From the NCBI RefSeq assembly GCF_965216145.1, contig NZ_OZ244149.1:417011-481010 (forward strand): a DNA stretch of 64,000 nucleotides, given 5' to 3'. A program made the position numbers and the translations under genes. Origin of the DNA: Candidatus Palauibacter sp. GTDB taxonomy: Bacteria; Gemmatimonadota; Gemmatimonadetes; Palauibacterales; Palauibacteraceae. This document shows, in pieces, positions 2,800 to 27,377 of this stretch; within the stretch, counting starts at the first letter, position 1, and every line of letters begins with the position of its first letter. Under the pieces are notes generated by a model that saw only the letters and a list, made by a program, of their open reading frames with translations, was not told the origin of the DNA and did not search any database.

Positions 2800-2878
2800 G
2801 GAAGGACCGAGAGATGAGGACTCCCGGAGACGAGCGTGAACGAGGCGCGGGACGTGAAGACGAGCATGGAGTCCCGCG

Positions 2879-4194: not shown

Positions 4195-4419
4195 ATGCGT
4201 AATCCACCAACATCTAGTTACGACATTGTTAGTGGTACATTCGATCTTTCTATCGACGGAAGCACCGTAACCGTAAAGGGCGATATCAGCAGTACCTACA
4301 ACACGGCCCTTATCCCCATAAATGTATCGTTCGATGTGGACAACAACCCTATGGACTATTCACTACGGGAGTTGGGCAAAATGGCCATCGTGCAGCACTT
4401 TCAAAAGAATGAGAGTTGA
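4195..4419 (+). CDS. Small hypothetical protein (74 aa) in an AT-rich patch
   Basis: ORF in a locally AT-rich segment that contrasts with the GC-rich surroundings; no recognisable motif. Could be non-coding. Confidence 0.3.
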   Translation: MRNPPTSSYDIVSGTFDLSIDGSTVTVKGDISSTYNTALIPINVSFDVDNNPMDYSLRELGKMAIVQHFQKNES

Positions 4420-4517
4420 GGTCAATTGAGGTCCAAGCTCCACTAGTTGAAGACAACCACTTACATAGGGTGTGTAAATTGGCGACCCGTCCAAAAAGCC
4501 GGGAACACCTCAGGATT

Positions 4518-5354
4518 CTATCCGAGGCTGTCGCGCAGGATTCTCTCCAATTCGTCAACTACGGCCCGCATGTGCAGCTTGTCTTCCGGGCGCTCTTCAC
4601 TATTGCGTATCGTATCGACGACATTTGACCATGTCTTATGGATTTCGGGCAATCTGAGCATCTTGGGATCCGCATTTAGTGCTACGTGTAGCAGCTCTTC
4701 CGCGCGAGTAAGGTCGAAAGCGTCATACGCATTAATTTTTTTGATACAGGCAAGATGCTCATTGGGGAAGTCCAACATCTGATAAAGATTATCAATATCT
4801 CTTGACAGATAAGCAGTATCCTGAAGAGCGCTTACAACTTGCTCTGCGATGTCCGACATGTTTGACTGGTGTCGGATCGCGATGGCCTCCTCAACGGCGT
4901 TGGCCAAATTGTCCCGAATCCACTCGTACCGTTCTTCGCTACTTCGCCCGGGAGGATCGTAACACTTCACCACACGGGAAAGATCTTCATGTGCGCCGAC
5001 AGCGATCCTGAACGGATTCGGACCCCTTGCGGCCACATGTCCATCCCGGTTTCGCAGGCCGTGGATGCGAATCCCGACGACGCCCATCCCATCCTTCCAG
5101 GACTTCTCAATCTCGTATTCGACCCATGGCCGTCCGGTGGTGTGGGTTCCCACCAAGACCACCGTGCAGGAGCGTGCTCGCATCTGGTCGACGATCCACG
5201 CCCTGATGGCCGGAGCACCCTGACGCGTCAATTCCTCCCAACTGGTATCCGTCGCCGGTCTGTTTCCCTCAACCACGCCGATGTTCCGAACCGTCGCCGC
5301 TCGCCAGCGGTCGGTTTCGTAGTTAAAGCTGTAGAACACCCTTCGCTTTAGCAT
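4518..5354 (-). CDS. TIR-like domain protein (DUF1863 / ThsB-like) with AT-rich C-terminal helical extension
   Basis: Start set at the internal ATG (MLKRRVFYSFNYETDRW...), residue 94 of ORF 4518..5633. N-terminal VFYSFNYETD ... CTVVLVGTHTTGRPWVEYEIEKSW ... GVVGIRIHGL fits the flavodoxin-like TIR/DUF1863 pattern. Confidence 0.65.
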   Translation of the reverse strand: MLKRRVFYSFNYETDRWRAATVRNIGVVEGNRPATDTSWEELTRQGAPAIRAWIVDQMRARSCTVVLVGTHTTGRPWVEYEIEKSWKDGMGVVGIRIHGLRNRDGHVAARGPNPFRIAVGAHEDLSRVVKCYDPPGRSSEERYEWIRDNLANAVEEAIAIRHQSNMSDIAEQVVSALQDTAYLSRDIDNLYQMLDFPNEHLACIKKINAYDAFDLTRAEELLHVALNADPKMLRLPEIHKTWSNVVDTIRNSEERPEDKLHMRAVVDELERILRDSLG

Positions 5355-5454
5355 GCCGTTCCTCCACGGCTCCCATCCACTATCACCGGCGACCGCGGGG
5401 GCGACATCGGTCGGAGGAGCGAGAACGAGATAAGATGCAACTCGGACGCCAGTT

Positions 5455-8190: not shown

Positions 8191-8609
8191 GGCGTCCCTC
8201 CCTGCGCAGCCCATTGAACCATCAGCCGAACCTCTGACGCCGCCCGACGATGCGGCTCGACGTAGGCCTCATCGAAGTTCCCCCGGCTGGCGTAGCGGTT
8301 ATGGTGCGACCAATCGGAGAACGGTTCCCCGCCCGGAAGCTGCGCAAGCAGCGCGCCCGCGCCTCGCTGCGCCGCGAACTGGTCGAACACGTTCCACAGT
8401 TCCTCGATATGTACGCGATGCGCCCGCTCTTCCGGCGCGCCGTCGGGGCGAACGAGCATACCAAGATTCTGCATGAGCGACTTCAGGCCGCACTCGGCGC
8501 TGAACCCGTACAACTGATCCGCGTTGGCCCAGCGACGCGCGGCCGACAGGTACTCGGCATCTTCCCAGTGTCGCTCGTGCGCGTCCTCGAAGTCCGCCGC
8601 GTAGATCAT
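8187..8609 (-). CDS. Hypothetical protein (140 aa), translationally coupled to the dual-NTPase gene
   Basis: Clean ORF starting MIYAADFEDAHERH; stop overlaps the downstream start. N-terminus resembles the methyltransferase C-terminal tail and the 65-aa orphan ORF. Contains RAHRVH, a weak R-x4-H HEPN-like hint only. Confidence 0.55.
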   Translation of the reverse strand: MIYAADFEDAHERHWEDAEYLSAARRWANADQLYGFSAECGLKSLMQNLGMLVRPDGAPEERAHRVHIEELWNVFDQFAAQRGAGALLAQLPGGEPFSDWSHHNRYASRGNFDEAYVEPHRRAASEVRLMVQWAAQGGTP

Positions 8610-9027: not shown

Positions 9028-9822
9028 TCACGGCTGTTCTTGAGGGGGTGTAGCGCTTTCGGCAGCACAGGCGATGGCGTCAAGCTTCTCGCTCACTTCC
9101 GGATCGACATCCGCAGGCGGCATGTGGCCGACGAGCCGGTAGAAGTTGCCCTTCGGCATGAGGTTTGGCAGGCCCAGCTTCGAGAAGTACGCGGTGAGCA
9201 GCGGCTTCAGGAACTCCGTGCTCACCTTCAGGTCGGCGCCCCACGGCGACGGCTTCCCGAGACGCCGCACGTTCACGGCGCCCTCGTCGAGCCGGGTCTC
9301 GGCCGCAGCCAGCCCCGACATCGGCGGCAGGAAGGCCATCCTCACGCTCCCCGCCTCGTCGGGGACGGGCATGCGGTCGGGAACGCGATCCTCCGTCAAC
9401 CGCAGCGGACGGCAGTACACCGACTCGTCGTTCGCGTAATCGAACTCGAGCCCGCACGTCCAGGCACGCCCGCGGGTCACCCCCTCGACGATGATGTCGA
9501 TGCGGATGTTCCTCGTTTGCTGTTTACCGCCTACGTACCGCACATCTCGCACCCGAAGATCCCGCCACGCGAGCTTAACGCTCGGAATTGGAATGGACAC
9601 GAGATCGCGACGGTTGATGGTCACGCCCGGGCGTTTCTCGGGCGTTCTCTTGCCGGCCCGCTTGGCGTTCCACTGGGTCAGCCCCGTGTGCCACAGGGCG
9701 AGCGCCTGCATGGCGGAGGTCTTGCCCGAATTGTTGGGTCCGATGAAGACGACCGGGCTCCCGAGCTCGACTTCGACGTCTTCGAAGCGCTTGAATCTTC
9801 GAATGGTCAGCTTTGTCAGCAT
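9028..9822 (-). CDS. AAA ATPase N-terminal fragment (AAA_15/AAA_21-like, as in GajA/PtuA/OLD-family ATPases), probably truncated
   Basis: Start at internal ATG (MLTKLTIRRFKRFEDVEVELGSPVVFIGPNNSGKTSAMQAL). Walker A present, but no Walker B, signature or H-loop before the stop at 264 aa. Confidence 0.5.
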   Translation of the reverse strand: MLTKLTIRRFKRFEDVEVELGSPVVFIGPNNSGKTSAMQALALWHTGLTQWNAKRAGKRTPEKRPGVTINRRDLVSIPIPSVKLAWRDLRVRDVRYVGGKQQTRNIRIDIIVEGVTRGRAWTCGLEFDYANDESVYCRPLRLTEDRVPDRMPVPDEAGSVRMAFLPPMSGLAAAETRLDEGAVNVRRLGKPSPWGADLKVSTEFLKPLLTAYFSKLGLPNLMPKGNFYRLVGHMPPADVDPEVSEKLDAIACAAESATPPQEQP

Positions 9823-9901
9823 ACGACGCCACCACTTCCCGTCCGGTCGCTTGCATGCGGCTTCAGCCAGCAGAGCAGCGGAACCGCGCATGGCGCACTG
9901 C

Positions 9902-11272
9902 TCATCTGACCCCCTGGAACTCCGCATCCACTCGTTCCAAGTCACGTCTCAGGTCATTCGCCGCTTGGCGCGCAAGGCGGAGCCGTTCCTTCTGATTCCG
10001 GCACCGTTCGCCCAGTTCCGAATAGCATATGGACAGATTGAGAAGTGACGAGAACAGGCCTTGAGCTGCCGTGTCGACCGCCTTGAGATCTTCCGGCGAA
10101 AAAGGCAGATCGCTTCCGCGCTCACCAAGTTCTTGGCCTTGCCCCGCCAGCTCGCGTAGACGCAGATCGCACTCGTTCGGCGTGCTCTTACCCGCTTCGA
10201 GATCGGAGAGGACGCGGATCACATTTTGCACGAGAGGACGGCTGGCTGAAACAAGTGTCTTGATCTCCCTTAGCATGGGCCCCTTCTTGCCCGTATGCTG
10301 TCGATGGAATTCTCTCCAGTGCCCGTACTGGTGATTCCAAAGAATCGAGACACCATCCCAAACTTCGTCACCGTCCCACGGCATCGGACGACAGGATGGA
10401 TCGAGGCCCGGATCAACCCACTGAGTTCGCGCAATCCAGTTCGCGTGACGAACGTCGTCGTGTCCGCCCGCCACATAGAGGTATACGACGTCTGCTCTAT
10501 GCCCGGACCAAAGCGCCTCAAGTTGAGGACTTCGGTGGTATTCCTCTTCGCGAATCTCCGGAAGAGCCCGACTGATCACGTCCCTAACGCCATCGCGCCC
10601 CGCGTGGCGATCAACTACCAGCACCGCTGAATAACGCTTGGCACCCGCATGACTCACGTCCTCGAGCCGCACGATCTCGTACGGCAGGTCGCCCTTCACC
10701 GGCACTTCGAGGATTGCGTCGGGCGCACGACGCTGGCCACAGGCACACGTCCCGTCGTTACGGAACAGCTTCCCGTCCCGAGGGCAGATCTTCTCGTATG
10801 CGATGAGGAGCCGGGCGCAATCAACCGTATCGACGATGAGGTGTGGGACAGTCGCGTCGCTGGCCGTCTGCGCAAAGTCGCGTCGCGCATCATCCTGAAT
10901 GTCCCCTACGGCCATCAGCACTGCCAAACCGAGGTCCGGTATCGTTCGGAGCTTAGCGAACTGATGAGAAACGATTTTGCTCGTAACCTTCGGGAAGGAA
11001 GGACCCTTCAAGACGAAGCCGGCGGTAACCGGACGACCACGTAGGACGATCCGAGTCGTAACGATGTCGGCGATCTCCGTTGGACCGTGTGGCGTTTCGT
11101 TCGGGTCGAAGAGGATCTCACGAACTGCTGATTCCAGCGCACGTTCGTTCAACCGCCGAACCTCCGCGAGCACGTCGTCAGACACGCCTGTGGCTGGAAT
11201 CCGAACCACCTTGGCGAACTGATCGATTTCACCGAGCGCCACCAAACGGGCCCGGTTCACGCCGATCCCCAT
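9902..11272 (-). CDS. Hypothetical protein (456 aa) with Cys cluster and C-terminal coiled coil; candidate partner of the methyltransferase
   Basis: Start at internal ATG (MGIGVNRARL...), 29 nt after the methyltransferase stop. Contains CPRDGKLFRNDGTCACGQ and a charged C-terminal helical region. No confident family assignment. Confidence 0.5.
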   Translation of the reverse strand: MGIGVNRARLVALGEIDQFAKVVRIPATGVSDDVLAEVRRLNERALESAVREILFDPNETPHGPTEIADIVTTRIVLRGRPVTAGFVLKGPSFPKVTSKIVSHQFAKLRTIPDLGLAVLMAVGDIQDDARRDFAQTASDATVPHLIVDTVDCARLLIAYEKICPRDGKLFRNDGTCACGQRRAPDAILEVPVKGDLPYEIVRLEDVSHAGAKRYSAVLVVDRHAGRDGVRDVISRALPEIREEEYHRSPQLEALWSGHRADVVYLYVAGGHDDVRHANWIARTQWVDPGLDPSCRPMPWDGDEVWDGVSILWNHQYGHWREFHRQHTGKKGPMLREIKTLVSASRPLVQNVIRVLSDLEAGKSTPNECDLRLRELAGQGQELGERGSDLPFSPEDLKAVDTAAQGLFSSLLNLSICYSELGERCRNQKERLRLARQAANDLRRDLERVDAEFQGVR

Positions 11273-11303
11273 CCGGTCGTGAAAGACCTGTTCTGCCTTG
11301 TTC

Positions 11304-14300
11304 TCAAGTCGTTCCTCCCGCCGACAGGTGTTGCGTACCCTGCGCACGTTCGGAATTTAGAGCCATCAGGCGGGCCAACACCTCGTCCCGCACCTCGTTG
11401 GGCCAGCGATATCGATGGGGTGCCCTTGCACGGCGACGCTCATCTTCGTCGGTCTCATGGTTGAGCAGGAACTCGCATCGGGTAGGGATGTCGGACCAGC
11501 CGTACGCATCGAGGACGACCCGATCGATGTCCGCGTGAAGCTCGCGGAGCCTCGATACCGCCGGATCCGTTTCGTTCCGGTCGTGGAACCGGTTGTACGT
11601 CTTGGTCAAGCCCTCCTGGTTGTGAAGCATGAGGTCGCCGCGAAACTCGTAGTATGCCTTGCCGACTCGCTCCCGGACGGGATCTGCATGCCAGTCTGGA
11701 GGAAACGGGAAAGTCTCAAAGCAGTCGGACGGCGTGTACCGCAGCCGTTCCTCAAGCGTCGACCCGAAAAAGCGTGCCCAAACCTCGTGAACGCGGGATT
11801 GAAGGACGCAAAACGCTGCGTAAGTGTCCATGGAAAAAATCACAAGAGTGTTGGCGAAAACCATTCGGGCTGGAAGAAACGCTAATGCCAGATGGGGCGT
11901 GGCACCGCAGTTGACGGCCAACACTCGATTCAAATCCGCGATGGTCGCGTAGAGTCCTGCAGCTTTTTCGGCGTGTTGCCACCAACGCTCTCGACGCACC
12001 TTACGGTTCTGTCGCTCACGGTCGGGCTTCACCTTTTCTTCTAGAATCTGCACTAACTCTGGCCATCGCTCGCGGCACTCGTCCTGCCGACGCTTGCCAA
12101 AGTTGATCACGTAGCGGTGATGCGCTTGCGCGAGGCTCGTGTTGACCTCCTGCCCGCCAATGTAGGGGAAGATCACTTGCGCATTGTGCGGATCCTCAGC
12201 GATAAGCCTCCGCATTTCGGCCAAGGGCGTGGCCACTCCCTTGGTGTCGGTGTCGTCGAACGTGAAGCCCATGCCGAGGACGATGCTCCCCTGAAAGCTC
12301 TGCTCCGCGTTTTCCTTGAGCCGCGGCGGGTCGTCGTTCCCACCTGCGTGGAACAGAAATGCCGTGATCCGTTCGACGGCGGCGTCATCGAGCGATTTCT
12401 GGTGCCCGAACCTCCCTTTCACGATGTGCAGGACGCTGACCACTACAGCCGCAACGCCCGGCCACTTGAAGCGGGTTTGCGCGCGGTAGATCTCTCCGCC
12501 GCGCGTGCAGATCCAGCGGAGGCCCGTGGACCGGGTGTCGCCTTGCGAAATCGTGTTCGTCGCGATGAGGCCCAGCGTGCCTTGTTTGCGCAGCAGGTTG
12601 AACGACCGCCGGAAGAAGTGGGCGACCAAATCCGCGTTGCCGTGGCTCCGCGCGTGCAGTTCCTTGAGCCACAGCGGGTAGCCGGGGACGTTCGAGGCCG
12701 CGACGGTGTTCTTGCCCGCGAACGGCGGGTTCCCGACGAAGGCGTCAAAGCCCGGGTTCCGGCGCTCGAACACCTCCGGGAACTCGATCTCCCAGTGGAA
12801 CGGGGCGAACGGCGTGGTCTCCTTCCGTTTCGCGGCGAGGCGCCCCCCGTGGGAGAGAACGGCGAGGCGTTCCGTATCGCTGTCGCCCAGAAGAGACGCG
12901 AAGTGCTGCCGCCGGCGGGCCTCCCGCTGCCTCGCTCTTGTCTCGAGGAAGAACGCCTCCAGCGCCAGATCGCCGAAGAACCGGACGTCCGTCAGCGCCG
13001 CGTTCGCGTCGTCCAGCTTGTCTCGAAGTTCCCGCTGGTCGATGTCGGGCGGCGCGTCCCTGATCTCCCCGCGTAGCGCGACCACGCGGTCCACTGCGTC
13101 CGAGACCACGGTGTTCAGCTCCAGCTGGGGCGGCAGGGATCCCCTCTTCCAGGTGAAGGCGGCGATCTGCGGCTTCGCCAGGCCGACCAGGGAGTCGCCG
13201 TCGCGGAGGGCGTGGTCCACGAAGGTGAGCGGTTCGTCCTTGGCCAGGGTGGCCAGCCACAACGACATCTTGGCGAGGTCCACCGCCATGGGGTTGCGGT
13301 CCACGCCGTAGAGGCAGCGATGCGCCACGAGACGGCGGGCGAACAGATCTTCGTCCTCCCCGGACGGGAGAGCGGGGAGCGTTCCGTGCATCCGCCATGC
13401 GGTGACGAGATGGTCGCCCAGTTGGCGGCAGGCCTCGACGAGGAAGGCGCCCGAACCCATGGCGGGATCGCAGACCTTGAGATCGAGGATCTGCTCGGCG
13501 CGGGGCGGGCCGCCGTCTCCGAGGCGTTCGAGGATCGGTTCCAGCGCTTGCCGCACGATCGGTTCGGTGAGTTCGCGCGGCGTGTAGTGCGATCCCGAGC
13601 GCCGCCGCGCCTCGCTGGGCTGGAGGATCATCGCGCCGCGCGGCACCAGATCCGGTGTGGCCGCCGCGTCGATGACGTTGTGCAGGGAGGCGTGCGCGTC
13701 GGCGAGCGTTTGCGCCGCGCGGAGGGGCTTGCTCACGGTGGGCGTCAGCTTTCGGCCCGTCCGGTCAAGAATCCATTTCGGGCGATCGACGGGCGCAACA
13801 TCCAAGAGCAGTTCCAGATCCACCGTTGTCGAGGCTCCGAGCTTCTTCTGCGCCTTGACGGCGGCGGACCGGCCCGTCGCGGTCTCCAGCCGGAACCCCA
13901 TCATCGTCTCGTACACGGAGCCGATCTGCTCCACGTCGAGCGCGCGGTACGAGATCCGTTCGCCGTCGAGGACCAGCAGCTTGTCGAGCACCCGGTAGAT
14001 CGTTCCGTCCGGCACCAACGGAACGTCGATCCCCTCGTGCACCTGCGGTGCGCCGCTCCCGCGCCATCCCTCGAGGAACGGGAACCGACTCGGGCTGAAC
14101 AGTTCTCCGCGCCGCGGCGGGAGTCTCATTCCGTCGCACTCCGCCCCGTCGTGGACCATGCGAAACAGCACGACGAGCTGTGCCCACGCCCCGTAGCGCT
14201 GGTCCATCGTGTCCGGGTTGAGCGCCGCGTCCTCCCTCAGCCTCTCGTACAGTCCGCCCAGCGAATAGGAGCCGAGGAAGGTCGCGTCGTCCGACAACAT

Positions 14301-15359
14301 CCCGCGCTCTTCGGCGTAGAGCACGAACACGAGGCGCAGTACGACGGTGAGGAGCGCGCGGTACACGTTGTCCGGATCCTCGTCCAGCGCCTCGCGCAGA
14401 AGCTTACCGTGCGACGCGTCGTGCGCCGCCTGGAAGCCACGCAACAACTCGTGCAGGGCGTGCAGCACCTGCTCGGCCAGCCGCTCGCTGACCACGTTCT
14501 GGTACTTGCGGCTGCTCTCCAGAAGGGCCGCCAGCCGTTGCTCCCGCGGCAGCGCCAGCAGCCGCTTCTCGGAGAGGAGGAGGCGTAGCGCCGCACACAG
14601 CGGGCGGCCCGCCGTGGAGAGCATGTCGCCGACCCGGAAGTCCATCCACCCGGAACTCTCGCCCCGCGGCGCGGACATGAGCCGGATCACGCGTCCGTTG
14701 AAGAGCAGCCCGGCGGGGACCCCGGTGCGGCGCAGCAGCCGTTCCATGCGCCCGTGGGGCGAGGCCTCGAGCCGGCCCGCACCCGTGGCGACGCGATCGA
14801 GGTCCTCCCCGGGGTCGAGGACGGTGACGAGCAGTTGCCACGGCACGCCTCCCTCCGCCGGATCCCGTTCGCGCACGGCGAGGCGGGGCCGCAGCACATC
14901 CCGGTATTCCTGGAGGCTGACCTCCAATTCGGGAGGAATGGGCGAATCGCCTATGCCCGCGTAGCCGCTGGGCGAGAAGCGCCAGCCCAGGACGGATCTC
15001 GCAAACGCTTCGAAGTCGGGCAGGTAGGGTTCGGGTTCTGCCGAGGTGCCGAACGCGCGTTCCCGGACGCACTCGTTCAGAAGCCGCTGTCCCCCGATGT
15101 CCCGCCGGTCAAGCACCGCGCCCGCCTGGACGAGCGCGTGTGCGGACACCACGAGCCCGGTCGGCTGGATGAACCCCAGCCACTCGAGGTGGTCCCGGAC
15201 GTAGGGCGAGGGCTTGGCCACGCGGCTCAGCCGGTCTCGGGCCAGAGATACACGAGTCCGACCGGCTCCACGCGACGCGCCCGCACCCGATAGAAGTCCT
15301 CGATCCGCGCCGGCTCGTCGCGCAGGTCGCGCTCGAACTGCTTGAGCCGGTCCCGCCAC
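11304..15359 (-). CDS. Gamma-class N6-adenine DNA methyltransferase (PglX / type IIG / Eco57I-like), ~1350 aa
   Basis: Motif order X-I-IV: SGSHYTP, then DPAMGSGAFL (SAM-binding motif I), then FVGNPPFAGKN (catalytic NPPF). Long N- and C-terminal extensions. ORF-track start is an alternative codon overlapping the helicase 3' end; the true start may be about 45 codons downstream. Confidence 0.8.
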   Translation of the reverse strand: MAGPAQAVRARPARRAGADRGLLSGAGASRGAGRTRVSLARDRLSRVAKPSPYVRDHLEWLGFIQPTGLVVSAHALVQAGAVLDRRDIGGQRLLNECVRERAFGTSAEPEPYLPDFEAFARSVLGWRFSPSGYAGIGDSPIPPELEVSLQEYRDVLRPRLAVRERDPAEGGVPWQLLVTVLDPGEDLDRVATGAGRLEASPHGRMERLLRRTGVPAGLLFNGRVIRLMSAPRGESSGWMDFRVGDMLSTAGRPLCAALRLLLSEKRLLALPREQRLAALLESSRKYQNVVSERLAEQVLHALHELLRGFQAAHDASHGKLLREALDEDPDNVYRALLTVVLRLVFVLYAEERGMLSDDATFLGSYSLGGLYERLREDAALNPDTMDQRYGAWAQLVVLFRMVHDGAECDGMRLPPRRGELFSPSRFPFLEGWRGSGAPQVHEGIDVPLVPDGTIYRVLDKLLVLDGERISYRALDVEQIGSVYETMMGFRLETATGRSAAVKAQKKLGASTTVDLELLLDVAPVDRPKWILDRTGRKLTPTVSKPLRAAQTLADAHASLHNVIDAAATPDLVPRGAMILQPSEARRRSGSHYTPRELTEPIVRQALEPILERLGDGGPPRAEQILDLKVCDPAMGSGAFLVEACRQLGDHLVTAWRMHGTLPALPSGEDEDLFARRLVAHRCLYGVDRNPMAVDLAKMSLWLATLAKDEPLTFVDHALRDGDSLVGLAKPQIAAFTWKRGSLPPQLELNTVVSDAVDRVVALRGEIRDAPPDIDQRELRDKLDDANAALTDVRFFGDLALEAFFLETRARQREARRRQHFASLLGDSDTERLAVLSHGGRLAAKRKETTPFAPFHWEIEFPEVFERRNPGFDAFVGNPPFAGKNTVAASNVPGYPLWLKELHARSHGNADLVAHFFRRSFNLLRKQGTLGLIATNTISQGDTRSTGLRWICTRGGEIYRAQTRFKWPGVAAVVVSVLHIVKGRFGHQKSLDDAAVERITAFLFHAGGNDDPPRLKENAEQSFQGSIVLGMGFTFDDTDTKGVATPLAEMRRLIAEDPHNAQVIFPYIGGQEVNTSLAQAHHRYVINFGKRRQDECRERWPELVQILEEKVKPDRERQNRKVRRERWWQHAEKAAGLYATIADLNRVLAVNCGATPHLALAFLPARMVFANTLVIFSMDTYAAFCVLQSRVHEVWARFFGSTLEERLRYTPSDCFETFPFPPDWHADPVRERVGKAYYEFRGDLMLHNQEGLTKTYNRFHDRNETDPAVSRLRELHADIDRVVLDAYGWSDIPTRCEFLLNHETDEDERRRARAPHRYRWPNEVRDEVLARLMALNSERAQGTQHLSAGGTT

Positions 15360-18300
15360 GAGCGGATGTTGGCCCGAAGCTGCTTCCGGTCCTCGTCGTC
15401 GAGGGCGAGCGTGAGCTGGGGTTCCTTCTCGTGCCGCTGCAGCTCCTTCTCGACGCGATCCCGCTGGCGAGTCAGGGTCTCGCGCAGCTCCCCCGCCTCC
15501 CGCTCACCGCGCTCGCTGAGACGCTCGGCCGCCTTCTTCGCCAACTCCTCCGCTCTGGGTTCCAACTGGGGTCTCAAGTCGCCGATGTCTGCGGGGGCCG
15601 CGGCGAGCAGCCGTTCCCGCACGGTCTCGCTCGGCTGCGACACCCGTTCCGAGTCGAGCACCCGGTCGAGCAGGGCCAGCGTCTTCCGCTCCGCGTCCGC
15701 CCGGTATCGCTCCAGCGGGCCCTGGCGGCGTTCGGGGTCCGTCCAGCGGGCCGTCACCGTAACGATCTCCTCGTGCAGGCGCTCCGCGCGTCGGCCGTAT
15801 AGCGACAGGCGCCCCAGCAGCACGACCCGGGGGATGGAGTCGGCCACCTGCGCGAGACAGGCCCGCGACAGGTCGTGGTGCACGAAGCCCTGCGCCCGGA
15901 ACCGGGCCAAGAGGCGCTGCGCGACCCGCTGTTCAAGGTGCAGGTGCACGACATCGTCCGTCAGTTCGCCCGGATCCTCGAACACGACCGGGCGGACGGG
16001 CGCCTCCCGCCGCCACTCCACGATCTTCTGATCCCGCTTCATCGGTGCGCGCAGCGTGTCGAGGGTCGACGCCCACGAGGGGTCCGCCGCCACCCGTCCG
16101 TCGAGGGCCGGGAACGACCACACCGCCCGCCCGTTCTCGTCGCGCGCCTCCCTCAGCGGCGCCGCGTTCTGAAGCCCCAGCGAGCACGACAGCGCCCTGC
16201 GGAATGCCTCAGGACCGAACCGCACCCACTCGCGCGACTTCTCGAGCAGGTTCCGGCAGCGCTCGATCTGATCCTCAAGATCGCTTTGCCGCTCGCGCGC
16301 CGACTCGAACTCGTCCGCCACGCGGCGCTTGCGGTCCGCCTCCAGATCCATCCCCGCCAGCGTCTCGGCGAGCCCCGTGGCATCACGGCGCCGAATCCCC
16401 TGCTTGAGCCGCTTCTCGATGTCCTCCTCGATCACCTTCGAGAGGCTGCCCAGCTCCCGGCGGATGGTCTCGGTCTTCCTCACCAGCACCTCGAGCACCC
16501 GGTCTTCGTGACGCTGGGGCAGGGTGAAGTAGTGGCAGCGCACTTCGTCCGCGGGCTGGAGCTTGCGGTCGATCCGCCCGTTGCGCTGCTCGATCCGGCC
16601 GGGGTTCCAGGGCAGGTCGAAGTGGAATAGGTCGGTGCAGTGCGCCTGGAAGTTCAGCCCCTCGCGCGCCGCATCCGTCGCCAGCAGGATGCGCAACGGA
16701 TCCCGCGACGGAGGCGTGTTGAAGCGGCGCTGGATTTCCTTGCGCCGCGCGCCGCTCGTGGCCCCCTCGATCACGGCAATCCGCTCCTCCGCCCTGTCCG
16801 TTCCCGCGATCGCGTGCGACAGCGCGTCCCTGAGGAACCGCTTGGTGCCCTCCACATGCTCGGTGAAGATCAGCACCCGGCGCTCGTTCCAGCGGGGCGT
16901 CCCCACTGCAGGCATTCCAAAGGGCGGAAGTTCGGGACACAGGTTCTCCCGGATCCAATCGAGGAGCGCGCGCGTCTTCGCGTCGGGGTGCGTGCGCGCA
17001 GAGTCCGCGACCTCCTGCATGCGGTCGAGCAGGCGCTGCTCCTTCCGCCACAAGTCCTCGATCCGGGCATCGCGCTTCAACGCCGACTCGGCCTCCCGGT
17101 TGGCGGCCTCGATCTGTGCTTCCTCCGCAGCTTCCTCAGCACCGTCGAGGATCTCGTCGTCCGCCCCCGGTGTCGTCAGGAAATCCTCCGCCAGCGCCCG
17201 GCGCGCCGCTCCGCCGCGAGCGTGCCGCTCGTCGCTTCCCGCGTTGCGGCCGGTCCCGGCCTCCCATTGCCTCTTCACCGTCTTCCGGTGCCGCGCGAGA
17301 CTGATGGCGAACGCCTCGATGGACGACAGCAGGCGCTGTTGAAGGCCGACGACGAGCAATCCCGCCGCCGCCCGCCCCCGGGCCGTCGCGTGGGCGAAGC
17401 GCTGGTCGCGCACGGAGCGGTATTCGTCCAGCAGCCTTGAGAGCACGAGTTCCGGCGCGTCCTCCGGCAGGTTGTCGATGACGACCGGTCTCACGTCCCG
17501 CTTGGGGAAGCCGCCCTGGATCTCGCGGATGTCTTCCTTGAGACGGCGGATCATCACGGCGTCGAGGTCCGTCTTCCCGCGCACCGTCACGCCTCGCGTG
17601 AAGCGGTGCGGGTCGAGCAGTTCCAACAGCGTGGAGAAGCTGTTCGAGTGCCCGTTGTGCGGCGTCGCCGACAGGAAGAGACGATGCTCGAAGCGGTAGC
17701 AGAGGTCGCGAATCGCGCGCGTGAACTTCGACTCGATGCCATACCGCCCGCCGTGGCTTGGGGCGGCGTGATGCGCCTCGTCCAGAATCAGCAGGCTTCC
17801 GGGCGACATCGTTCCGAGCCACTCCCGCATAGGATCCGCGTAGGCGGGATCGGCCAACAGCCGGTGCGAAACGAGGAACCGGCTGTGCGTCCGCCACGGA
17901 TTCACGCCGAAGCCGCGCTCGCGGCGCATCGTCGCCACGTAGTGCCGGTCCAGGATCTGGAACACGAGCCCGAACCGCTCCTCCATCTCCGCCTTCCACT
18001 GCTCCAGCACCGAGGGAGGCGCGGCCACAACGATGGTCTTCGCCTTTCGGCGCAGGAGAAGCTCGCGCGCGATCAGCCCGGCCTCGATCGTCTTGCCCAG
18101 ACCGGTGTCGTCCGCGATGAACAGGTTCACGCGCGGCAGGCGGAGGGCCTTCCTCAGCGGCTCCATCTGGTAGGCGTCTAGGGTGATCCCGGCCCGGAAC
18201 GGCGCCTGAAACAGCGACGGATCGGTCGCGGTCGTGCAGCTCCACCGCAACGTGTTGAGGAAGGCCGCGAAGTACTCCGGCGAGTCGAAGCCGCGCTCCG

Positions 18301-18589
18301 CCAAGTTCTCCCACGGCTCATCATCGAGGATGGCGCGGTCGAGCTCGTACTTCCAGAAGACTTCGAGTTCCTGCCCCTGCGCATCGTCATCCGCGCACGC
18401 CAGCCGGACCCGCGCGGACTCACTGGACTGTCGGCCCCCCGTCACCTCCTCCACCAGCCAGCGCCGTGTACGTACCCGCACCATCTCCCCCACCTCCGGA
18501 TCCCGGCTTGGCAAGCCACGGGAAAGCCGAGGGTCACCGTGGGCGTTAGCTGCGTCATGGGAACCGAGCGGTTCCAGGTCAGGCGTCAT
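15227..18589 (-). CDS. SF2 helicase, SNF2/DEAH-type (DISARM DrmD-like / BREX helicase-like), ~1120 aa
   Basis: Helicase motifs I LFIADDTGLGKT, II LLILDEAHH, III LFLSATPHNG, VI QRNGRIDRKLQ; long C-terminal coiled-coil region. Confidence 0.8.
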   Translation of the reverse strand: MTPDLEPLGSHDAANAHGDPRLSRGLPSRDPEVGEMVRVRTRRWLVEEVTGGRQSSESARVRLACADDDAQGQELEVFWKYELDRAILDDEPWENLAERGFDSPEYFAAFLNTLRWSCTTATDPSLFQAPFRAGITLDAYQMEPLRKALRLPRVNLFIADDTGLGKTIEAGLIARELLLRRKAKTIVVAAPPSVLEQWKAEMEERFGLVFQILDRHYVATMRRERGFGVNPWRTHSRFLVSHRLLADPAYADPMREWLGTMSPGSLLILDEAHHAAPSHGGRYGIESKFTRAIRDLCYRFEHRLFLSATPHNGHSNSFSTLLELLDPHRFTRGVTVRGKTDLDAVMIRRLKEDIREIQGGFPKRDVRPVVIDNLPEDAPELVLSRLLDEYRSVRDQRFAHATARGRAAAGLLVVGLQQRLLSSIEAFAISLARHRKTVKRQWEAGTGRNAGSDERHARGGAARRALAEDFLTTPGADDEILDGAEEAAEEAQIEAANREAESALKRDARIEDLWRKEQRLLDRMQEVADSARTHPDAKTRALLDWIRENLCPELPPFGMPAVGTPRWNERRVLIFTEHVEGTKRFLRDALSHAIAGTDRAEERIAVIEGATSGARRKEIQRRFNTPPSRDPLRILLATDAAREGLNFQAHCTDLFHFDLPWNPGRIEQRNGRIDRKLQPADEVRCHYFTLPQRHEDRVLEVLVRKTETIRRELGSLSKVIEEDIEKRLKQGIRRRDATGLAETLAGMDLEADRKRRVADEFESARERQSDLEDQIERCRNLLEKSREWVRFGPEAFRRALSCSLGLQNAAPLREARDENGRAVWSFPALDGRVAADPSWASTLDTLRAPMKRDQKIVEWRREAPVRPVVFEDPGELTDDVVHLHLEQRVAQRLLARFRAQGFVHHDLSRACLAQVADSIPRVVLLGRLSLYGRRAERLHEEIVTVTARWTDPERRQGPLERYRADAERKTLALLDRVLDSERVSQPSETVRERLLAAAPADIGDLRPQLEPRAEELAKKAAERLSERGEREAGELRETLTRQRDRVEKELQRHEKEPQLTLALDDEDRKQLRANIRSWRDRLKQFERDLRDEPARIEDFYRVRARRVEPVGLVYLWPETG

Positions 18590-18831
18590 GCGGAGCGTCC
18601 AAGGGCACGTACCGGGTCATTCCGGTTGGGCGACAGGATGACCGACACCTCAGCCCTCCGGCAAGCTCTCGCGCGTCCCTCCCGCCGTGCCCTCCCATGT
18701 TGCATACTCGCTCCTCGTAGCCAAGCACCCCGCCTCCGATGCAACCTTTCGGATGTCGCCCGGTTTTCCGCATGATCGTATCGTTCGACCGGCTCGACCT
18801 GTCACCGCGTGCGTCCGTCAAAACGCTTATC
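18590..18831. promoter_or_regulatory. Divergent intergenic region between the helicase operon (-) and the SIR2-like gene (+)
   Basis: About 240 nt non-coding spacer between divergent starts; appears to contain a short inverted repeat (GTTGCAT ... ATGCAAC). No promoter consensus confidently identified. Confidence 0.3.
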
Positions 18832-19875
18832 ATGCATATGCTCACGAAAACTGAACTTACGGGCTCTCCACAAAACGGACGCCCTCACGTTGTCCTTCTC
18901 GGCGCGGGTGCAAGTAGGGCCGCGTTTCCCGATGGGGACCGACACGGCAGATCCATACCCCTAATGTCTGACCTCGCAGACCTCCTCGGATCGCCCTGGA
19001 CCGATCTTGTCGTGCGCGCCAGTCCTCCGGTCAACGGCTTTGAGCGCCAATTCACTTGGCTAAGGGATCAGCATCGTTACACGGATTCTCTCCATGAAAT
19101 AGAGTCCTCCCTTTTTGACTATTTCGTGAACCTCGCTCTACCGGACCACGCAACGATTTATGATCATCTTGTCCTAGGACTTCGCCGGAAGGATGTAATT
19201 GCGACGTTCAACTGGGATCCGTTTCTGCTTCTTGCCCATCGACGCAACAGACTTCCTAATCTGCATCTTCCCGACATCAGGTTCCTTCACGGCTGTGTGC
19301 TGTACGCCAGTTGCATTCAGCATTCTGAAGTGCTTGGCTCACCAGGGGAGATCTGCCCTCGCTGTAACAAACCTCTAACTCGAAGCAGTTTGATCTTTCC
19401 CGTTGAAGACAAGAACTACGTCGACGACCGCTTGATCGCTGAGGATTGGAGGGCGGTGACGGATACACTCCCAAGAGCTTTTCAACTGACCATATTCGGA
19501 TACTCCGGTCCGTCGACGGACTACCAAGCCAAGACGTTGCTCCGAGACGCTTGGGGTGCTTCGGCTACTGACGATTCTTCCATGTCCCCCATACGTCAAT
19601 TCAGCCACCTCGAGATTATCGACACCGTGAAGGGCGGTGAACTGTATGAGCGCTGGAAGGATCTCATTCCTCTCGACCACCTCATGTCGACCGATACGTT
19701 CTGGGATTCCTCGATGGCCAGATGGCCCCGCAGAACCGCGGAGTCTAAGTTGCAGGCGAGCATCTTTGCGCGAATAGTTGAACCCCTCGGTCCGTGTCGC
19801 ACGACGAATCTTGGGGAGCTCCAAGAGTTCCACATGGAGCTTGCAAGAGTGGAGAGGGAGAAGGGTGTGGAGTAA
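18832..19875 (+). CDS. SIR2-like (SIR2_2 / DHS-like NAD-binding) protein, stand-alone
   Basis: Start at internal ATG (MHMLTKTEL...). VVLLGAGAS (Rossmann-like), IATFNWDPFL (TTNYD-like), FLHG (catalytic-His position), IFGYSGPSTD (GYSxxD). Locally lower G+C than the flanks. Confidence 0.6.
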   Translation: MHMLTKTELTGSPQNGRPHVVLLGAGASRAAFPDGDRHGRSIPLMSDLADLLGSPWTDLVVRASPPVNGFERQFTWLRDQHRYTDSLHEIESSLFDYFVNLALPDHATIYDHLVLGLRRKDVIATFNWDPFLLLAHRRNRLPNLHLPDIRFLHGCVLYASCIQHSEVLGSPGEICPRCNKPLTRSSLIFPVEDKNYVDDRLIAEDWRAVTDTLPRAFQLTIFGYSGPSTDYQAKTLLRDAWGASATDDSSMSPIRQFSHLEIIDTVKGGELYERWKDLIPLDHLMSTDTFWDSSMARWPRRTAESKLQASIFARIVEPLGPCRTTNLGELQEFHMELARVEREKGVE

Positions 19876-23694: not shown

Positions 23695-24330
23695 TCAGAA
23701 TCCGGAGAGGATGGCATCCGCACGGCCGACCAGGGCCCGGTTCAGCGACAGCCACGTCTCCACCGTGGTCGGGTCCGCCCAGCCGGAGGCGGCAGCCGCC
23801 ACCAGCCCCGAGGTTTGGGGCCACGGGCGGCCCTCGGCGAACTCCCGCACGTCCTCGAAGGCGGAGAACACGGTGGGATCCACCTCGGCCCCGATCGAGG
23901 TGAGACGGTTGGACACGGCGCGCCACTCCGCGCGCGTTGCCGCGTCCACGGCGAGCTGGGGCAGGCGCACAGCGCCCGCCAGCGAACCCGTCAGCGGGCC
24001 GGCGGAGCCGTCGGCGGCCCCGGGAACGACCCAGGTCACGATCTGTCCCTCGAGCCCGAACCGCCTGAACTCCTGCAGCCGGTAGAAGAGGGCGAGCGCG
24101 AGTTCCCGCTGCAGCCGGGCCGCCTCGTCCGCCGCCTCCGTGAGCCGCCCGAGTCGCCGGCCCTGCCGCTCGGCCATGCCCGCCAGGATGTCCGCCGCCG
24201 CGTCGCCATCGCCCGCAGGCCCCCCACCGGGCCCACCCAATGCGACCCCCGCGACGCCGCCCAGGACGAGGCCCATCAGGAGACCCGCCGCCGCGGCCCG
24301 AACCGGCTTCGCCGAAACACGCCACGTCAT
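23695..24330 (-). CDS. Hypothetical membrane-anchored protein
   Basis: Start at internal ATG (MTWRVSAKPVRAAAAGLLMGLVLGGVAGVALGG), which overlaps the stop of the upstream gene (ATGA). Hydrophobic N-terminal segment then a helical region. Confidence 0.45.
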   Translation of the reverse strand: MTWRVSAKPVRAAAAGLLMGLVLGGVAGVALGGPGGGPAGDGDAAADILAGMAERQGRRLGRLTEAADEAARLQRELALALFYRLQEFRRFGLEGQIVTWVVPGAADGSAGPLTGSLAGAVRLPQLAVDAATRAEWRAVSNRLTSIGAEVDPTVFSAFEDVREFAEGRPWPQTSGLVAAAASGWADPTTVETWLSLNRALVGRADAILSGF

Positions 24331-25448
24331 CGCCGGTTGTGGTGCTCGTCGTAGTGTTTGCCGAGCCAATCCTCGCCGTAGTCGTTGCCGGGGTCGCGCA
24401 TGATGCTGTGCACATGGTTGGCGGCGCCGCCGTCCCCGACGCCGCGCTCGACGATGTACTCGATGAGGACGGAGGGTCCGTGGACACGGTAGTAGTAGCG
24501 TGCGGACACGTCATCCACGGGCCCGATCCACGCGAAATGCAGGGCATCCAGGCCGTCCGCACGGATCTTCTCGAGCTGGGTCTCCGCCGCACCGTGATCC
24601 GCGTTGGCCACATACTCCTCCACGAGCTCCCACAGAAGGGCATGCTGAGTTTCGGAGAGCGCGGACGCCGGGAGACCGGCGAACGCGTTCAGGTTCCCTT
24701 TCCGGCCGGGCCCGGTGAGCACGTCGCGGGGGATGTCTTCCCCGAGGACCGCCCGCGCGCGCTGGTCGCCATCCAGCGCCTGCAGCAGCCGCCAGCCCCG
24801 TTCGCCCTCGTTGGCGAGCACCCGCCAGCCGGCGTCGAGCCCGTGAAGAATTTCGTGCGGCTCCGCTCCCAGGAAGAGCGGCGTGAAGCTGATCCGGCCG
24901 TCCGCCACCGTGAAGTTGGCCGCCAGGTGGTGACCCGAGATCTGCCAGCCCCAGTTGGCTTCCTCGCCGGGGCGGCCGAAGAAGGAGATCCAGTAGTTGG
25001 CCGATGTCCAGCTCTCGACGAGGTCCGACGGGAGCCGTCGCTCGCCGCTCGCCACGGCCGCCGTCGCTTCTTCGTGCAGCATTTCATCCAGGCGCACGAC
25101 CCCGGCCATCTTCTGGTATCCCTGGCTGCTCGTCGACGCACGCAGGAGGTCGTGCAGCCGTCTTCGTTGGAGGTCGGTGAAGTCGCCGATCCGCGCCCCG
25201 CTCCGCGCCACGATGCTGGCCGGCAGGTTGCTCCAACTGGTGCGGGCCGTGTCGGCCTCGAAGGGGAATTGCGCGGCCGCACGCTGCGCCGGAGACAGCG
25301 AGGCGAGGAACTCCCGAGCCGCCTCGGTCATGCGCGCGGGCGACAATTCGGCTTCGATGGCCACTCCCGCCCTGGCGGGCCGCGCTTCCGCCTCTCCGCC
25401 ACAGGCGGCCAGCAGCCCGGCGACGACAACACCCTGCAACGTCGACAT
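24327..25448 (-). CDS. Secreted lipoprotein of unknown function (possibly DUF3500-like)
   Basis: Start at internal ATG (MSTLQGVVVAGLLAACGGEA, lipobox-like); the 775-codon ORF in the track is an upstream extension. Family name is from memory, not verified. Confidence 0.55.
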   Translation of the reverse strand: MSTLQGVVVAGLLAACGGEAEARPARAGVAIEAELSPARMTEAAREFLASLSPAQRAAAQFPFEADTARTSWSNLPASIVARSGARIGDFTDLQRRRLHDLLRASTSSQGYQKMAGVVRLDEMLHEEATAAVASGERRLPSDLVESWTSANYWISFFGRPGEEANWGWQISGHHLAANFTVADGRISFTPLFLGAEPHEILHGLDAGWRVLANEGERGWRLLQALDGDQRARAVLGEDIPRDVLTGPGRKGNLNAFAGLPASALSETQHALLWELVEEYVANADHGAAETQLEKIRADGLDALHFAWIGPVDDVSARYYYRVHGPSVLIEYIVERGVGDGGAANHVHSIMRDPGNDYGEDWLGKHYDEHHNRR

Positions 25449-25637
25449 GATCCGGCGGGGGCCGGCGGCGCTCCGACCGTTCACTGAATCCCTCCTCCCA
25501 AGTGTGGCTTCCGGCGAGGCCGGAGTCTCCGAATCGGGTTCCCGAACGTAACCCGCCCGGGGGCATGCGTACATCGTTGGCAGGGTCTTAGGTTGCAACC
25601 CCATCCCCGGAAGAAGGCCACCGGAAGGAGGCGCCCC

Positions 25638-27377
25638 ATGGTCTTGCACGGCACACGTCTCAACGCACTCCGATTCGTCACCGTGGTCCTCGGTGTCGGC
25701 ACCCTCTCGCTCCCGACACCGACGAGCGCCCAGGAGACCGCGCCCGCCATCGAATCGATCACGGGGGCCGACCTTCGCGCCGACCTCTTCTTCCTGGCCG
25801 GAGACGAGATGCGCGGCCGCCTCGCCGGCTCGCCCGAGGGCCGCCTCGCGAGCGCCTTCATCAAGTCGCGCTTCGAGCGGCTCGGGCTCACGCCGGCTGC
25901 CCCCGGTGGCTCCTACTACCACTCCTTCAACGTCGTCCAGGCCGAGGTCGGGGAGGACAACCGCCTGGCCGTCGAGTACGACGACGGGCGGGTGATCTCG
26001 AAGGAGCGCGGCCAGGAGTTCTACCCCCTGCGAGAGAGCGGGAGCGGCACGGCCGGCGGGCAGGTCGTGTTCGCCGGCTTCGGGATCTCCGCGCCGGAAC
26101 TGGGCCACGACGACTACGGTGCCGGCGTGGCGGGCAACGTCGTCCTCATCCTCGATCACGAACCGGAAGAGACGGACCCCGAGAGCGCCTTCGATGGCCT
26201 CGTCACTTCGGAGGCCTCCGCCGCCTACCGGAAGCTCGCCGCCGCGCAGGAGGCCGGGGCGGTCGCCGCCCTCCTGGTGACGGACGTCCACAACCACCCC
26301 GAACCCGGCAACTTCAGCGCCGAGGCCGCCGGCTACTGGCCCGAGACCGTCCGCCGCGGGGGACGCTACACACTCGAGAGCCGCCTGAACCGGATCCGCA
26401 TCCCCGCCGTCCGCATCTCGACGGCGCTGGCGGAGAGTCTCGTCGAGGGCACCGGTCGCACGCTGGCGGAGCTGGCGCGCGGCGCGGAGGCGGCGGGAGG
26501 CGCCGCACCCGTTTCCCTCCCCGGTCTCGAGGTGATGGTCTCGGCGGACGTGCGACGGGAGGTCCACACCGCACGCAACGTAGTCGGCCTCATCGAAGGC
26601 TCGGACCCGGAGCTCAGGGACGAGTGGGTCATCGTGTGCGCGCACTTCGACCACGACGGCGCCGAGGGCGCGATGATCTACAACGGCGCGGACGACGATG
26701 GCTCGGGCACCGTGGCGCTGATCGAGATCGCCGAGGCCTACGCCGAGGCCGCGCGCATGGGCGAGGGCCCCCGCCGCTCGGTCCTGCTCGCGGCGTGGGA
26801 CTTCGAGGAGAAGGGACTGCTGGGCGCGTGGGCCTACGTCGAGAACCCGCTACATCCTCTCGACAAGACGGTGGCCGTCCTCAACATGGACATGATCGGG
26901 CGCAACGAGGAGGTCGTCGTGGGAGGCGGCCGCCGCTTCCGGGGGCTCGACATCCAGTCGGCCGGATCCAACGCCAACGCGATCAACATCCTCGGGACCA
27001 CCCGGAGCGACGACCTGCTGTCCGAGGTCCAGCGAGCCAACGCCGAGACGGGCCTCGATCTGCGCTTCCGCTACGACAACCACCCGATCCAGCTCCTGCG
27101 CCGCAGCGACCACTGGCCGTTCATGCAGGTGGGCGTCCCCGCGCTCTTCTATCACACGGGGCTGCACCCGGACTACCACCGCCAGGACGATATCCCCGAG
27201 CGCATCAACTACGAGAAGCTGGAGAAGGTGGCCCGGCTCGTGTACCAGACGAGCTGGAGCCTGGCCCAGCGGCCAAGCGGACCGGCGAGGATCAGCATGT
27301 CACCTCCCGCGACCTGTCCATCACGTCGACGATGTCCGGCGCCTCGGCAAGGTACTCCTTCTTTGCCCTGGCAATGA
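25638..27377 (+). CDS. M28 family zinc aminopeptidase with PA domain
   Basis: Start at internal ATG (MVLHGTRLNALRFVTVVLG, signal-like). HFDH ... GADDDGSG ... EEKGLLGA ... NMDMIG are M28 metal-binding/catalytic motifs. Confidence 0.75.
   Translation: MVLHGTRLNALRFVTVVLGVGTLSLPTPTSAQETAPAIESITGADLRADLFFLAGDEMRGRLAGSPEGRLASAFIKSRFERLGLTPAAPGGSYYHSFNVVQAEVGEDNRLAVEYDDGRVISKERGQEFYPLRESGSGTAGGQVVFAGFGISAPELGHDDYGAGVAGNVVLILDHEPEETDPESAFDGLVTSEASAAYRKLAAAQEAGAVAALLVTDVHNHPEPGNFSAEAAGYWPETVRRGGRYTLESRLNRIRIPAVRISTALAESLVEGTGRTLAELARGAEAAGGAAPVSLPGLEVMVSADVRREVHTARNVVGLIEGSDPELRDEWVIVCAHFDHDGAEGAMIYNGADDDGSGTVALIEIAEAYAEAARMGEGPRRSVLLAAWDFEEKGLLGAWAYVENPLHPLDKTVAVLNMDMIGRNEEVVVGGGRRFRGLDIQSAGSNANAINILGTTRSDDLLSEVQRANAETGLDLRFRYDNHPIQLLRRSDHWPFMQVGVPALFYHTGLHPDYHRQDDIPERINYEKLEKVARLVYQTSWSLAQRPSGPARISMSPPATCPSRRRCPAPRQGTPSLPWQ

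Follow-up and report, generated by a model that had tools for sequence, protein, structure and literature searches.

Bacterial proteins whose SIR2 domain breaks down nicotinamide adenine dinucleotide (NAD+), the SIR2-domain NADases, rank among the commonest immune effectors, and those that have been well studied have a sensor domain or a partner, be it SLOG, HerA, pAgo, STAND, the C-terminal part of the DSR proteins or KomB. In type I Thoeris, ThsA (7uxt, 8bto) binds a TIR-made signal through its C-terminal SLOG domain, and its gene lies beside that of ThsB. KomC of the Kongming system (9v0g, 8zsf) forms a working complex with KomB, and deoxyinosine triphosphate (dITP) made with KomA activates it. 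Here, we describe a gene from a 64,000-nucleotide stretch of the genome of Candidatus Palauibacter sp. (contig NZ_OZ244149.1, positions 417,011 to 481,010; the whole stretch is called the window below) that compares with these systems in fold and differs from each of them in architecture. The gene is an intact open reading frame (ORF) at 18832..19875 on the forward strand, encoding 347 amino acids (aa) plus a stop, and its product is almost certainly a SIR2-fold NAD-binding enzyme. It belongs to a large, unannotated family of minimal SIR2-fold proteins that fits the defining features of no named system and behaves as an autonomous, horizontally mobile accessory gene family. In function we favour an autonomous, NAD+-depleting defence effector, a reading to which we give about an even chance; NAD+ as the substrate, NADase chemistry, the role in defence and the mode of activation are all parts of it that we infer.

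As none of the sequence models detects the motifs of this protein, its assignment to SIR2 rests on the predicted fold. An AlphaFold2 model built from an alignment of 53 homologues was confident (predicted local distance difference test 90.3, predicted template modelling score 0.90), and its top structural match was a Rossmann-type NAD-binding domain of SIR2 topology. Ranks 1 to 33 of a Foldseek search with the model were all SIR2 proteins, the best being the SIR2/HerA structure 8wld (E = 3e-8), and both CobB and the SIR2 protein of SPARSA were among the fold matches; in a separate fold comparison, unrelated Rossmann folds began only at 7.5. According to the model, the 347 residues make up a single SIR2 core with a predicted zinc ribbon and a short helical C-terminal part, and the GAGAS, FNWD, LHG and FGYS motifs lie at strand ends in the canonical order of a SIR2 NAD site.

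Sequence models, by contrast, failed to identify the protein, an outcome that is telling but not decisive. The first-pass annotation of this DNA, made from the letters alone, had pointed to Pfam SIR2_2 as a check on the protein, and that expectation failed: at E ≤ 0.1 the window protein matched no Pfam family, PF02146 (SIR2) and PF13289 (SIR2_2) included, and 53 family members searched at E ≤ 10 returned noise only, with SIR2 and SIR2_2 both unmatched. No family of PADLOC 2.0 (E ≤ 0.1) or NCBIfam 20.0 (E ≤ 0.01) matched the window protein, and phmmer and profile searches of the PDB sequences found nothing relevant. Aligned with hhalign, the family alignment A1 and Escherichia coli CobB gave a probability of 0.5%, which is at noise level. 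A profile of 113 family sequences set against CobB and an unverified Sir2Tm sequence produced a meaningless global alignment. Local alignments with these two sequences were non-significant but collinear, pairing GAGAS with GAGIS, FLHG with MHG and FGYS with IGTS; the best local segment aligned FLHG with the MHG of CobB (E = 0.011, not significant), and the GAGAS loop was weakly paired with CobB LTGAGIS.

The four SIR2 motifs that the first-pass annotation had read from the sequence were all found, and conservation in the family peaks at them, as counted over 113 members with pairwise identities of no more than 50%. The GAGAS loop (residues 24–28; 18901..18915, +), which presumably binds the NAD pyrophosphate, follows strand beta-1, the model placing a strand at 19–23 and a helix at 25–31 around it; G24, G26 and S/T28 are invariant (113/113), with A25 kept in 109 and A27 in 110. 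FNWDP (residues 126–130; 19207..19221, +) stands at the end of the Rossmann strand 122–125 and has N127 and D129 in all 113 sequences and F126 and W128 in 112. From the order of the motifs, it is the presumed counterpart of the sirtuin TQNID and the ThsA-type TTNYD. RFLHG (residues 150–154; 19279..19293, +), at the end of strand 148–152, holds the presumed catalytic histidine H153 (112/113) and the invariant G154 (113/113). Motif order and secondary structure in the model suggest that N127 and H153 would be equivalent to the catalytic Asn and His of SIR2 enzymes. The fourth motif, FGYSGPSTD (residues 222–230; 19495..19521, +), presumed counterpart of the sirtuin GTS and the SIR2_2 GYSxxD, lies between strand 218–222 and helix 231–242, with G223 and P227 in 113, Y224 in 108 and D230 in 112 of the sequences.

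Two further elements are retained outside these motifs. Directly behind the HG motif, as in classical sirtuins, lies a zinc-ribbon-like C161-x2-H164-x10-C175-x2-C178 (19312..19365, +), and the model shows short beta elements across this predicted ribbon (residues 155–185). C161 is found in 103, C175 in 104 and C178 in 103 of the 113 sequences, and position 164 is H in 39, D in 34 and C in 22 of them (95 in total), such that the sirtuin-type predicted ribbon, C-x2-[H/D/C]-x~10-C-x2-C, is kept in about 91% of members. Near the C-terminus, the basic motif WPRRTAESK (residues 298–306; 19723..19749, +) is specific to the family by conservation, its P-R-R-(S/T)-x-E core being near-invariant (P299 in 100, R300 in 109, R301 in 107, S/T302 in 107 and E304 in 97 of 113). 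We know of no counterpart of this PRR(S/T) motif in the known SIR2 families.

Set beside the described systems, the protein comes closest in its presumed action to the SIR2 effectors of SIR2-HerA, Kongming and Thoeris, and it partly resembles a classical sirtuin by its zinc ribbon. The SIR2 protein of SIR2-HerA (Nezha; Paenibacillus PsSIR2, 8w9l and 8wld) is a fold match with 15% identity and no shared sequence-model match, and no HerA gene adjoins the window gene or its homologues in the 83 non-redundant loci. To our knowledge, HerA-associated SIR2 proteins lack the C-x2-[H/D/C]...C-x2-C zinc ribbon. No KomA- or KomB-like genes accompany the family. Unlike ThsA, the protein has no SLOG domain, no match to the PADLOC ThsA model and no conserved TIR neighbour. 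DSR1 and DSR2 run to about 1000 aa, as against 347 aa here, their SIR2 domain at the N-terminus being followed by a large sensor at the C-terminus, and DSR2 was absent among the structural matches listed. SPARSA joins SIR2-APAZ to a short pAgo; the window protein has no APAZ domain and its gene no such neighbour, and the SIR2 domain of SPARSA is a fold match only; Avs5 (SIR2-STAND) carries a STAND NTPase and sensor that the single-domain window protein lacks. The likeness to classical sirtuins (CobB, Sir2Tm, Sir2-Af1, SIRT1–7) lies in the predicted zinc ribbon directly behind the presumed catalytic histidine; the family differs from them in having no PF02146 match, in its C-terminal PRR(S/T) motif, in its patchy and mobile distribution, and in the replacement of the acyl-lysine-binding FGE loop by (L/I)xFPxxDKxY.

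The nearest precedent by description is ‘sole-Sir2’, a small single-gene Sir2 protein that is an NADase in vitro and a close homologue of which protects against phages T2 and T4 (bioRxiv 10.1101/2024.12.27.630466). It is about 440 aa long, has a DSR2-like Sir2 domain at the C-terminus behind an N-terminal part that is not Sir2, and is sometimes found at CRISPR-Cas loci (bioRxiv 10.1101/2024.12.27.630466). The family described here resembles it in standing alone, without partner, and in one placement at a CRISPR-Cas locus, on the Legionella plasmid pLPL, where the gene lies just upstream of a type I-F system. It differs in that the window protein has 347 aa and its SIR2 core begins at about residue 19; the two were compared by description only. 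By analogy, ‘sole-Sir2’ offers a precedent for an effector of this kind that would act as a single-gene NADase. In the literature searched, no paper was found that describes the present family.

The family is large. Searches at E ≤ 1e-3 gathered 2808 clusters at 90% identity, those with names being called ‘hypothetical protein’ throughout and none having a Pfam domain, and an exhaustive profile search gave 1313 clusters at 50% identity (E ≤ 1e-3), 369 of them below 1e-30. Most members are 320–360 aa long, and at least 528 species-representative genomes encode one. Their distribution over bacteria and some archaea is sporadic and includes Acidobacteriota, Nitrospirota, Planctomycetota, Verrucomicrobiota, Proteobacteria (Aeromonas, Vibrio), Bacillota, Bacteroidota, Cyanobacteria, the candidate phyla radiation (CPR) and a Methanolinea archaeon. 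Matches were also found on eight plasmids, conjugative Legionella plasmids included, of nearly full length on seven and as a fragment on one, and on 16 IMG/VR contigs; GenBank phage genomes had no match to the family. Some members have an N-terminal extension of about 105 aa (441–442 aa in all).

The composition of the gene fits such mobility, and it shows where the proposal of horizontal acquisition in the first-pass annotation holds and where it does not. The AT-rich patch noted there is real: the gene has a G+C (GC) content of 54.5% against 71% in its 5-kb flanks, a profile in 500-nt windows falls to 0.51–0.55 over the gene from 0.66–0.75 on either side, and GC at third codon positions (GC3) is 59% against 88% for the DrmD-like gene, 82% for the DrmMI-like gene and 91% for the FG-GAP gene around it. 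This foreign composition speaks for acquisition. However, the gene lies more than 3 points below its flanks in GC in 56 of 74 loci and above them in only 4 (median −8.4 points), and the compositional signal is a property of the whole family. In addition, a relative carries a collinear DrmMI-DrmD-SIR2-FG-GAP block at 87.9% nucleotide identity, the DNA to the left of DrmMI-DrmD-SIR2 diverging between the two. Compared with its 89.6%-identical orthologue, the gene has a ratio of nonsynonymous to synonymous substitution rates (dN/dS) of 0.21 at a synonymous divergence (dS) of 0.24, like its neighbours, and is under purifying selection in this lineage. Syntenic in the relative and so constrained, the gene is a resident of this lineage and not a recent arrival. 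Direct or inverted repeats bounding the low-GC patch were searched for and none was convincing; no insertion scar was found.

The start given in the first-pass annotation, 18832, stood up to comparison with the family. The open frame spans 18739–19875 (+), or 378 aa counted from its first ATG, and the in-frame upstream ATG at 18739 would add 31 residues that are poorly conserved. Homologues are about 335 aa long and begin 13–20 residues ahead of the PHVV strand. A start at 18832, where the sequence reads ATG CAT ATG, is the likeliest because it agrees with these lengths and N-termini, giving the 347-aa product with its stop at 19875. In RefSeq, the sole named member of the 90% cluster of this gene is WP_420463154.1, a 161-aa ‘hypothetical protein’ of Candidatus Palauibacter sp. 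on the same 4.3-Mb contig. Given its 161 aa, the public annotation appears to hold a mere fragment of the gene.

What surrounds the homologues bears on whether the protein acts alone. ORFs were called in 88 loci, 83 of them non-redundant, and their 1397 products clustered all-against-all. The largest neighbour cluster, the family itself aside, occurs in 7 of the 83 loci, so that the gene has no obligate partner, and no recurrent ATPase or HerA partner was found across them. The absence of an adjacent SLOG, HerA or pAgo gene, as first read in the window, was confirmed there, and no neighbour is conserved across the 83 loci. Among the nearest upstream genes (n = 74), the commonest Pfam families were Eco57I (4), MmeI_Mtase, N6_Mtase, AAA_21 and SMC_N (3 each), and Fic and HEPN_AbiU2 (2 each); the nearest downstream genes (n = 73) were heterogeneous, with no dominant family. 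In two loci (L002, L007), PIN toxin or toxin-antitoxin and transposase genes adjoin the SIR2-fold gene, and in two others (L006, L008) it sits between plain housekeeping genes. Elsewhere it follows a helicase-nuclease (L017) or a Lon-like protease (L062).

We return to the autonomous, NAD+-depleting defence effector and to how it might work. In its favour are the fold, the near-invariant residues of active-site type, purifying selection, the size and spread of the family, its autonomy and mobility, the ‘sole-Sir2’ precedent and a recurrent placement at defence loci, namely in the defence island of the window, in L001, L024, L087, L084 and L069 (described below) and on pLPL. It would be a minimal, self-contained enzyme, with a Rossmann NAD-binding core, the GAGxS, N-x-D and HG motifs, a zinc ribbon and the C-terminal P-R-R-(S/T), that consumes NAD+ as a glycohydrolase or, possibly, by ADP-ribosyl transfer. 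Once triggered, depletion of NAD+ or modification of a target would protect the population from phages or further kinds of mobile element; most likely, the enzyme would hydrolyse NAD+ and so halt the growth of infected cells, as its closest structural matches do. Since there is neither a sensor domain nor a partner gene, control would most likely be intrinsic, exerted by the oligomeric state of the protein or the formation of filaments, or by a cue from the invader that the protein binds directly. Several points weigh against this reading. The searched literature holds no biochemical or phage-challenge data for any member; no PADLOC or NCBIfam defence model is matched; no sensor domain that could restrain a toxic NADase is visible; and about three quarters of the loci have no recognisable defence gene as nearest neighbour. 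Furthermore, neither CobB nor Sir2Tm gave a significant profile comparison, and the equivalence of N127 and H153 is drawn from motif order and secondary structure only. The enrichment of the family at defence loci is a qualitative one.

That the zinc ribbon is kept, and further residues besides are invariant, favours a protein that modifies a specific target, as a protein deacylase or a SirTM-like mono-ADP-ribosyltransferase acting on a particular protein or nucleic-acid substrate. The ribbon and the P-R-R-(S/T) motif would then bind that substrate, in conflict with mobile elements or in regulation. We consider such a target-modifying sirtuin unlikely, if the most credible of the alternatives.

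Rather less probable is that the protein serves restriction-type modules, here the DrmD-like and DrmMI-like pair, as a second-line effector or as a guard that fires when these modules engage an invader or when an invader inhibits them. The adjacency behind this idea is evident in the window. As first noted, the gene is transcribed divergently from a helicase gene, across a 242-bp intergenic region (18590..18831) in which both promoters presumably lie, no sigma-70-type promoter consensus or terminator having been found in or around it. That neighbour encodes a DrmD-like SNF2 helicase of 1120 aa (15227..18589, −; PADLOC DrmD over its full length at E = 0; Pfam SNF2-rel_dom and Helicase_C), and next to it lies the gene of a 1351-aa DrmMI-like N6-adenine methyltransferase of MmeI/Eco57I type (11304..15359, −; PADLOC DrmMI at E = 0; Pfam Eco57I, MmeI_Mtase and MmeI_TRD). 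The window contains no DrmA, DrmB or DrmC, and the ORFs downstream of the DrmMI-like gene have no Drm matches. The same pair without DrmA/B/C (11304–18589, −) is arranged alike in the relative (L003–L005), and it may be a degenerate DISARM or an independent system of SNF2 helicase and MmeI-type methyltransferase. Class 1 DISARM is defined by drmA, drmB and drmC alongside drmD and drmMI, and its definition includes no SIR2 protein.

In favour of a restriction accessory, family members from unrelated hosts and distant subclades repeatedly lie next to SNF2-helicase/N6-methyltransferase or restriction genes: in the window with its DISARM-like pair lacking DrmA, DrmB and DrmC, in the Gemmatimonadota-like L003–5, and in L069, L024, L087, L084 and L001. 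In the Pontiellaceae locus L024 the gene has a 4-nt overlap, suggestive of co-translation, with the end of a gene for a type IIG methyltransferase that follows an HKD-Snf2 helicase; it lies immediately behind a Type ISP-like methyltransferase gene in L087 (gap −1), has a type IIG restriction-modification gene nearby in L084, and stands directly behind a type I HsdR gene, near TIR and AbiE genes, in L001. A Cyanobium metagenome-assembled genome (L069; CALRUA020000016.1, 1695–18359) has the gene inside a complete class 1 DISARM operon, DrmD-DrmMI-DrmA-DrmB-DrmC. Moreover, the DrmMI-DrmD-SIR2 block of the window has held together at the identity given above while the DNA to its left diverged.

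Against this, such a neighbour is missing from most of the 83 loci, and in the window the gene and that of the helicase are read in opposite, diverging directions. Members associated with restriction genes are scattered across the family, each having closer relatives in other contexts (the nearest to that of L069 being from Aeromonas, L041, at 78%), and the association is thus polyphyletic, as would be expected of cargo landing in defence hotspots; the scatter fits repeated landing of this kind better than a dedicated partnership. The slot in the DISARM operon of L069 is also shared with other cargo. Four genes are inserted there between drmMI and drmA, namely a PDC-S09-like gene (103 aa), a 118-aa gene, the SIR2-fold gene and a 293-aa gene of unknown type, and the SIR2-fold gene is cargo in that operon. 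A further case of defence cargo nested in a restriction operon was observed in L001, where 2482–4493 (−), between hsdS and hsdR of a type I restriction system and beside AbiEi/AbiEii, encodes a 394-aa TIR_2 protein and a SLOG-like LD_cluster2 protein of 276 aa. The downstream FG-GAP gene that L001 shares in kind with the window was considered as a syntenic anchor and set aside, the two genes being non-homologous and the resemblance a coincidence.

More speculative still, and in our view doubtful, is that these proteins are widespread minimal sirtuin-like immune enzymes that have kept the ancestral zinc ribbon and sense the invader themselves before depleting NAD+ or ADP-ribosylating a target. 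The ribbon and/or the P-R-R-(S/T) motif would, on this equally doubtful extension, bind nucleic acid or a nucleotide of the invader, or the protein would guard restriction, DISARM or CRISPR modules.

A Thoeris-like effector acting with the TIR gene near the left end of the window, a pairing raised in the first-pass annotation with the TIR gene at 4518–5354, is very improbable. That gene (4518–5633, −) is ThsB-like (PADLOC, 2.7e-58; also PDC-M50B). Some 13 kb and at least four unrelated genes separate it from the SIR2-fold gene, the 347 aa contain no SLOG or Macro signal-binding domain, no TIR family is among the commonest nearest-neighbour Pfam families listed for the homologues, and the sole TIR gene near a homologue, in L001, has its own SLOG-type neighbour, LD_cluster2. 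A likelier partner of the window's TIR gene is the KGGVGR-motif AAA ATPase with PDC-M28B and PDC-M28C matches encoded beside it. A housekeeping CobB-like deacetylase that happens to lie beside a defence island is just as improbable: the SIR2 fold, the presence of CobB among the Foldseek hits and the zinc-ribbon-like site, which the first-pass annotation overlooked and whose cysteines it had named as a mark of such an enzyme, speak for it, but PF02146 is not matched, the hhalign comparison with CobB does not rise above noise, neighbourhoods vary, the distribution over taxa is sporadic, copies lie on plasmids and on (pro)viral contigs, and members are consistently richer in AT than their hosts.

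One more SIR2 defence candidate would by itself be unsurprising; this family is worth testing for its breadth, for escaping annotation, for the zinc ribbon that it keeps and for the puzzle of how an NADase with no sensor would be controlled. The members amount to little more than a catalytic core and a sirtuin-type zinc ribbon, and yet they occur in hundreds of species, many phyla and on plasmids. Should the autonomous defence effector be borne out, a large family that is currently invisible to defence-system annotation would be gained, together with the question of how a sensor-less and potentially lethal NADase stays off and is then switched on. If a specific target is modified instead, the family would represent a new mobile sirtuin activity, and if its members are self-sensing immune enzymes, they would combine sensor and effector in one domain and form an evolutionary bridge from housekeeping sirtuins to defence NADases. 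Homologues in the cultured hosts Aeromonas rivuli DSM 22539 and Vibrio sp. HA2012, and on the Legionella pneumophila plasmid pLPL (WP_011212644.1), are directly testable.

The first 20 kb of the window are a defence island, of which the SIR2-fold gene is the last member ahead of a core FG-GAP/ASPIC gene. At the left edge, an EruA-like NACHT ORF enters the window (4–2799, +), matching the C-terminal 590 residues of EruA (NF058535; 415 bits, under the 1000-bit cutoff) and, more weakly, HyoA. The TIR gene at 4518–5633 abuts or overlaps the gene of the ATPase mentioned above (5455–8214, −; 919 aa, with a Sll1717-type P-loop domain), and the two make a candidate TIR and ATPase system that no Thoeris effector adjoins. 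A 305-aa ORF follows (9028–9945, −), of which the N-terminal ~45 residues (P-loop) only match GajA (Gabija), AriA, OLD and MADS3-type ATPases; with the match limited to these residues, it may be a fragment. The 481-aa ORF at 9902–11347 (−) has no PADLOC or NCBIfam match.

Some minor observations on the family and the window remain. Two proteins, P0154 (residues 1–160, at its N-terminus) and P0159 (residues ~385–471, at its C-terminus), share an extra module starting MPSNFRFLVICR..., which points to a small gene that recurs in the neighbourhood and is fused in some cases. Other members carry unrelated extensions at the N-terminus (105–165 aa) or C-terminus (130–200 aa). The extensions, including this module, had no Pfam match. 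A match on the Enterococcus faecalis plasmid LR962441.1 (H8) was considered as a bridge to another SIR2 subfamily and rejected, being merely a 78-aa remnant; it covers the region from FGYS to HTHHY (L091, 5073–5309) and is flanked, within a multiresistance region, by spw and apmA, both aminoglycoside resistance genes. Lastly, about 3 kb of the window to the right of the FG-GAP gene (24313–27295) are missing from the relative (L003, 15566–15568), with flanking identities of 87.9% before and 82% after, and represent an insertion or deletion inside core-like genes.

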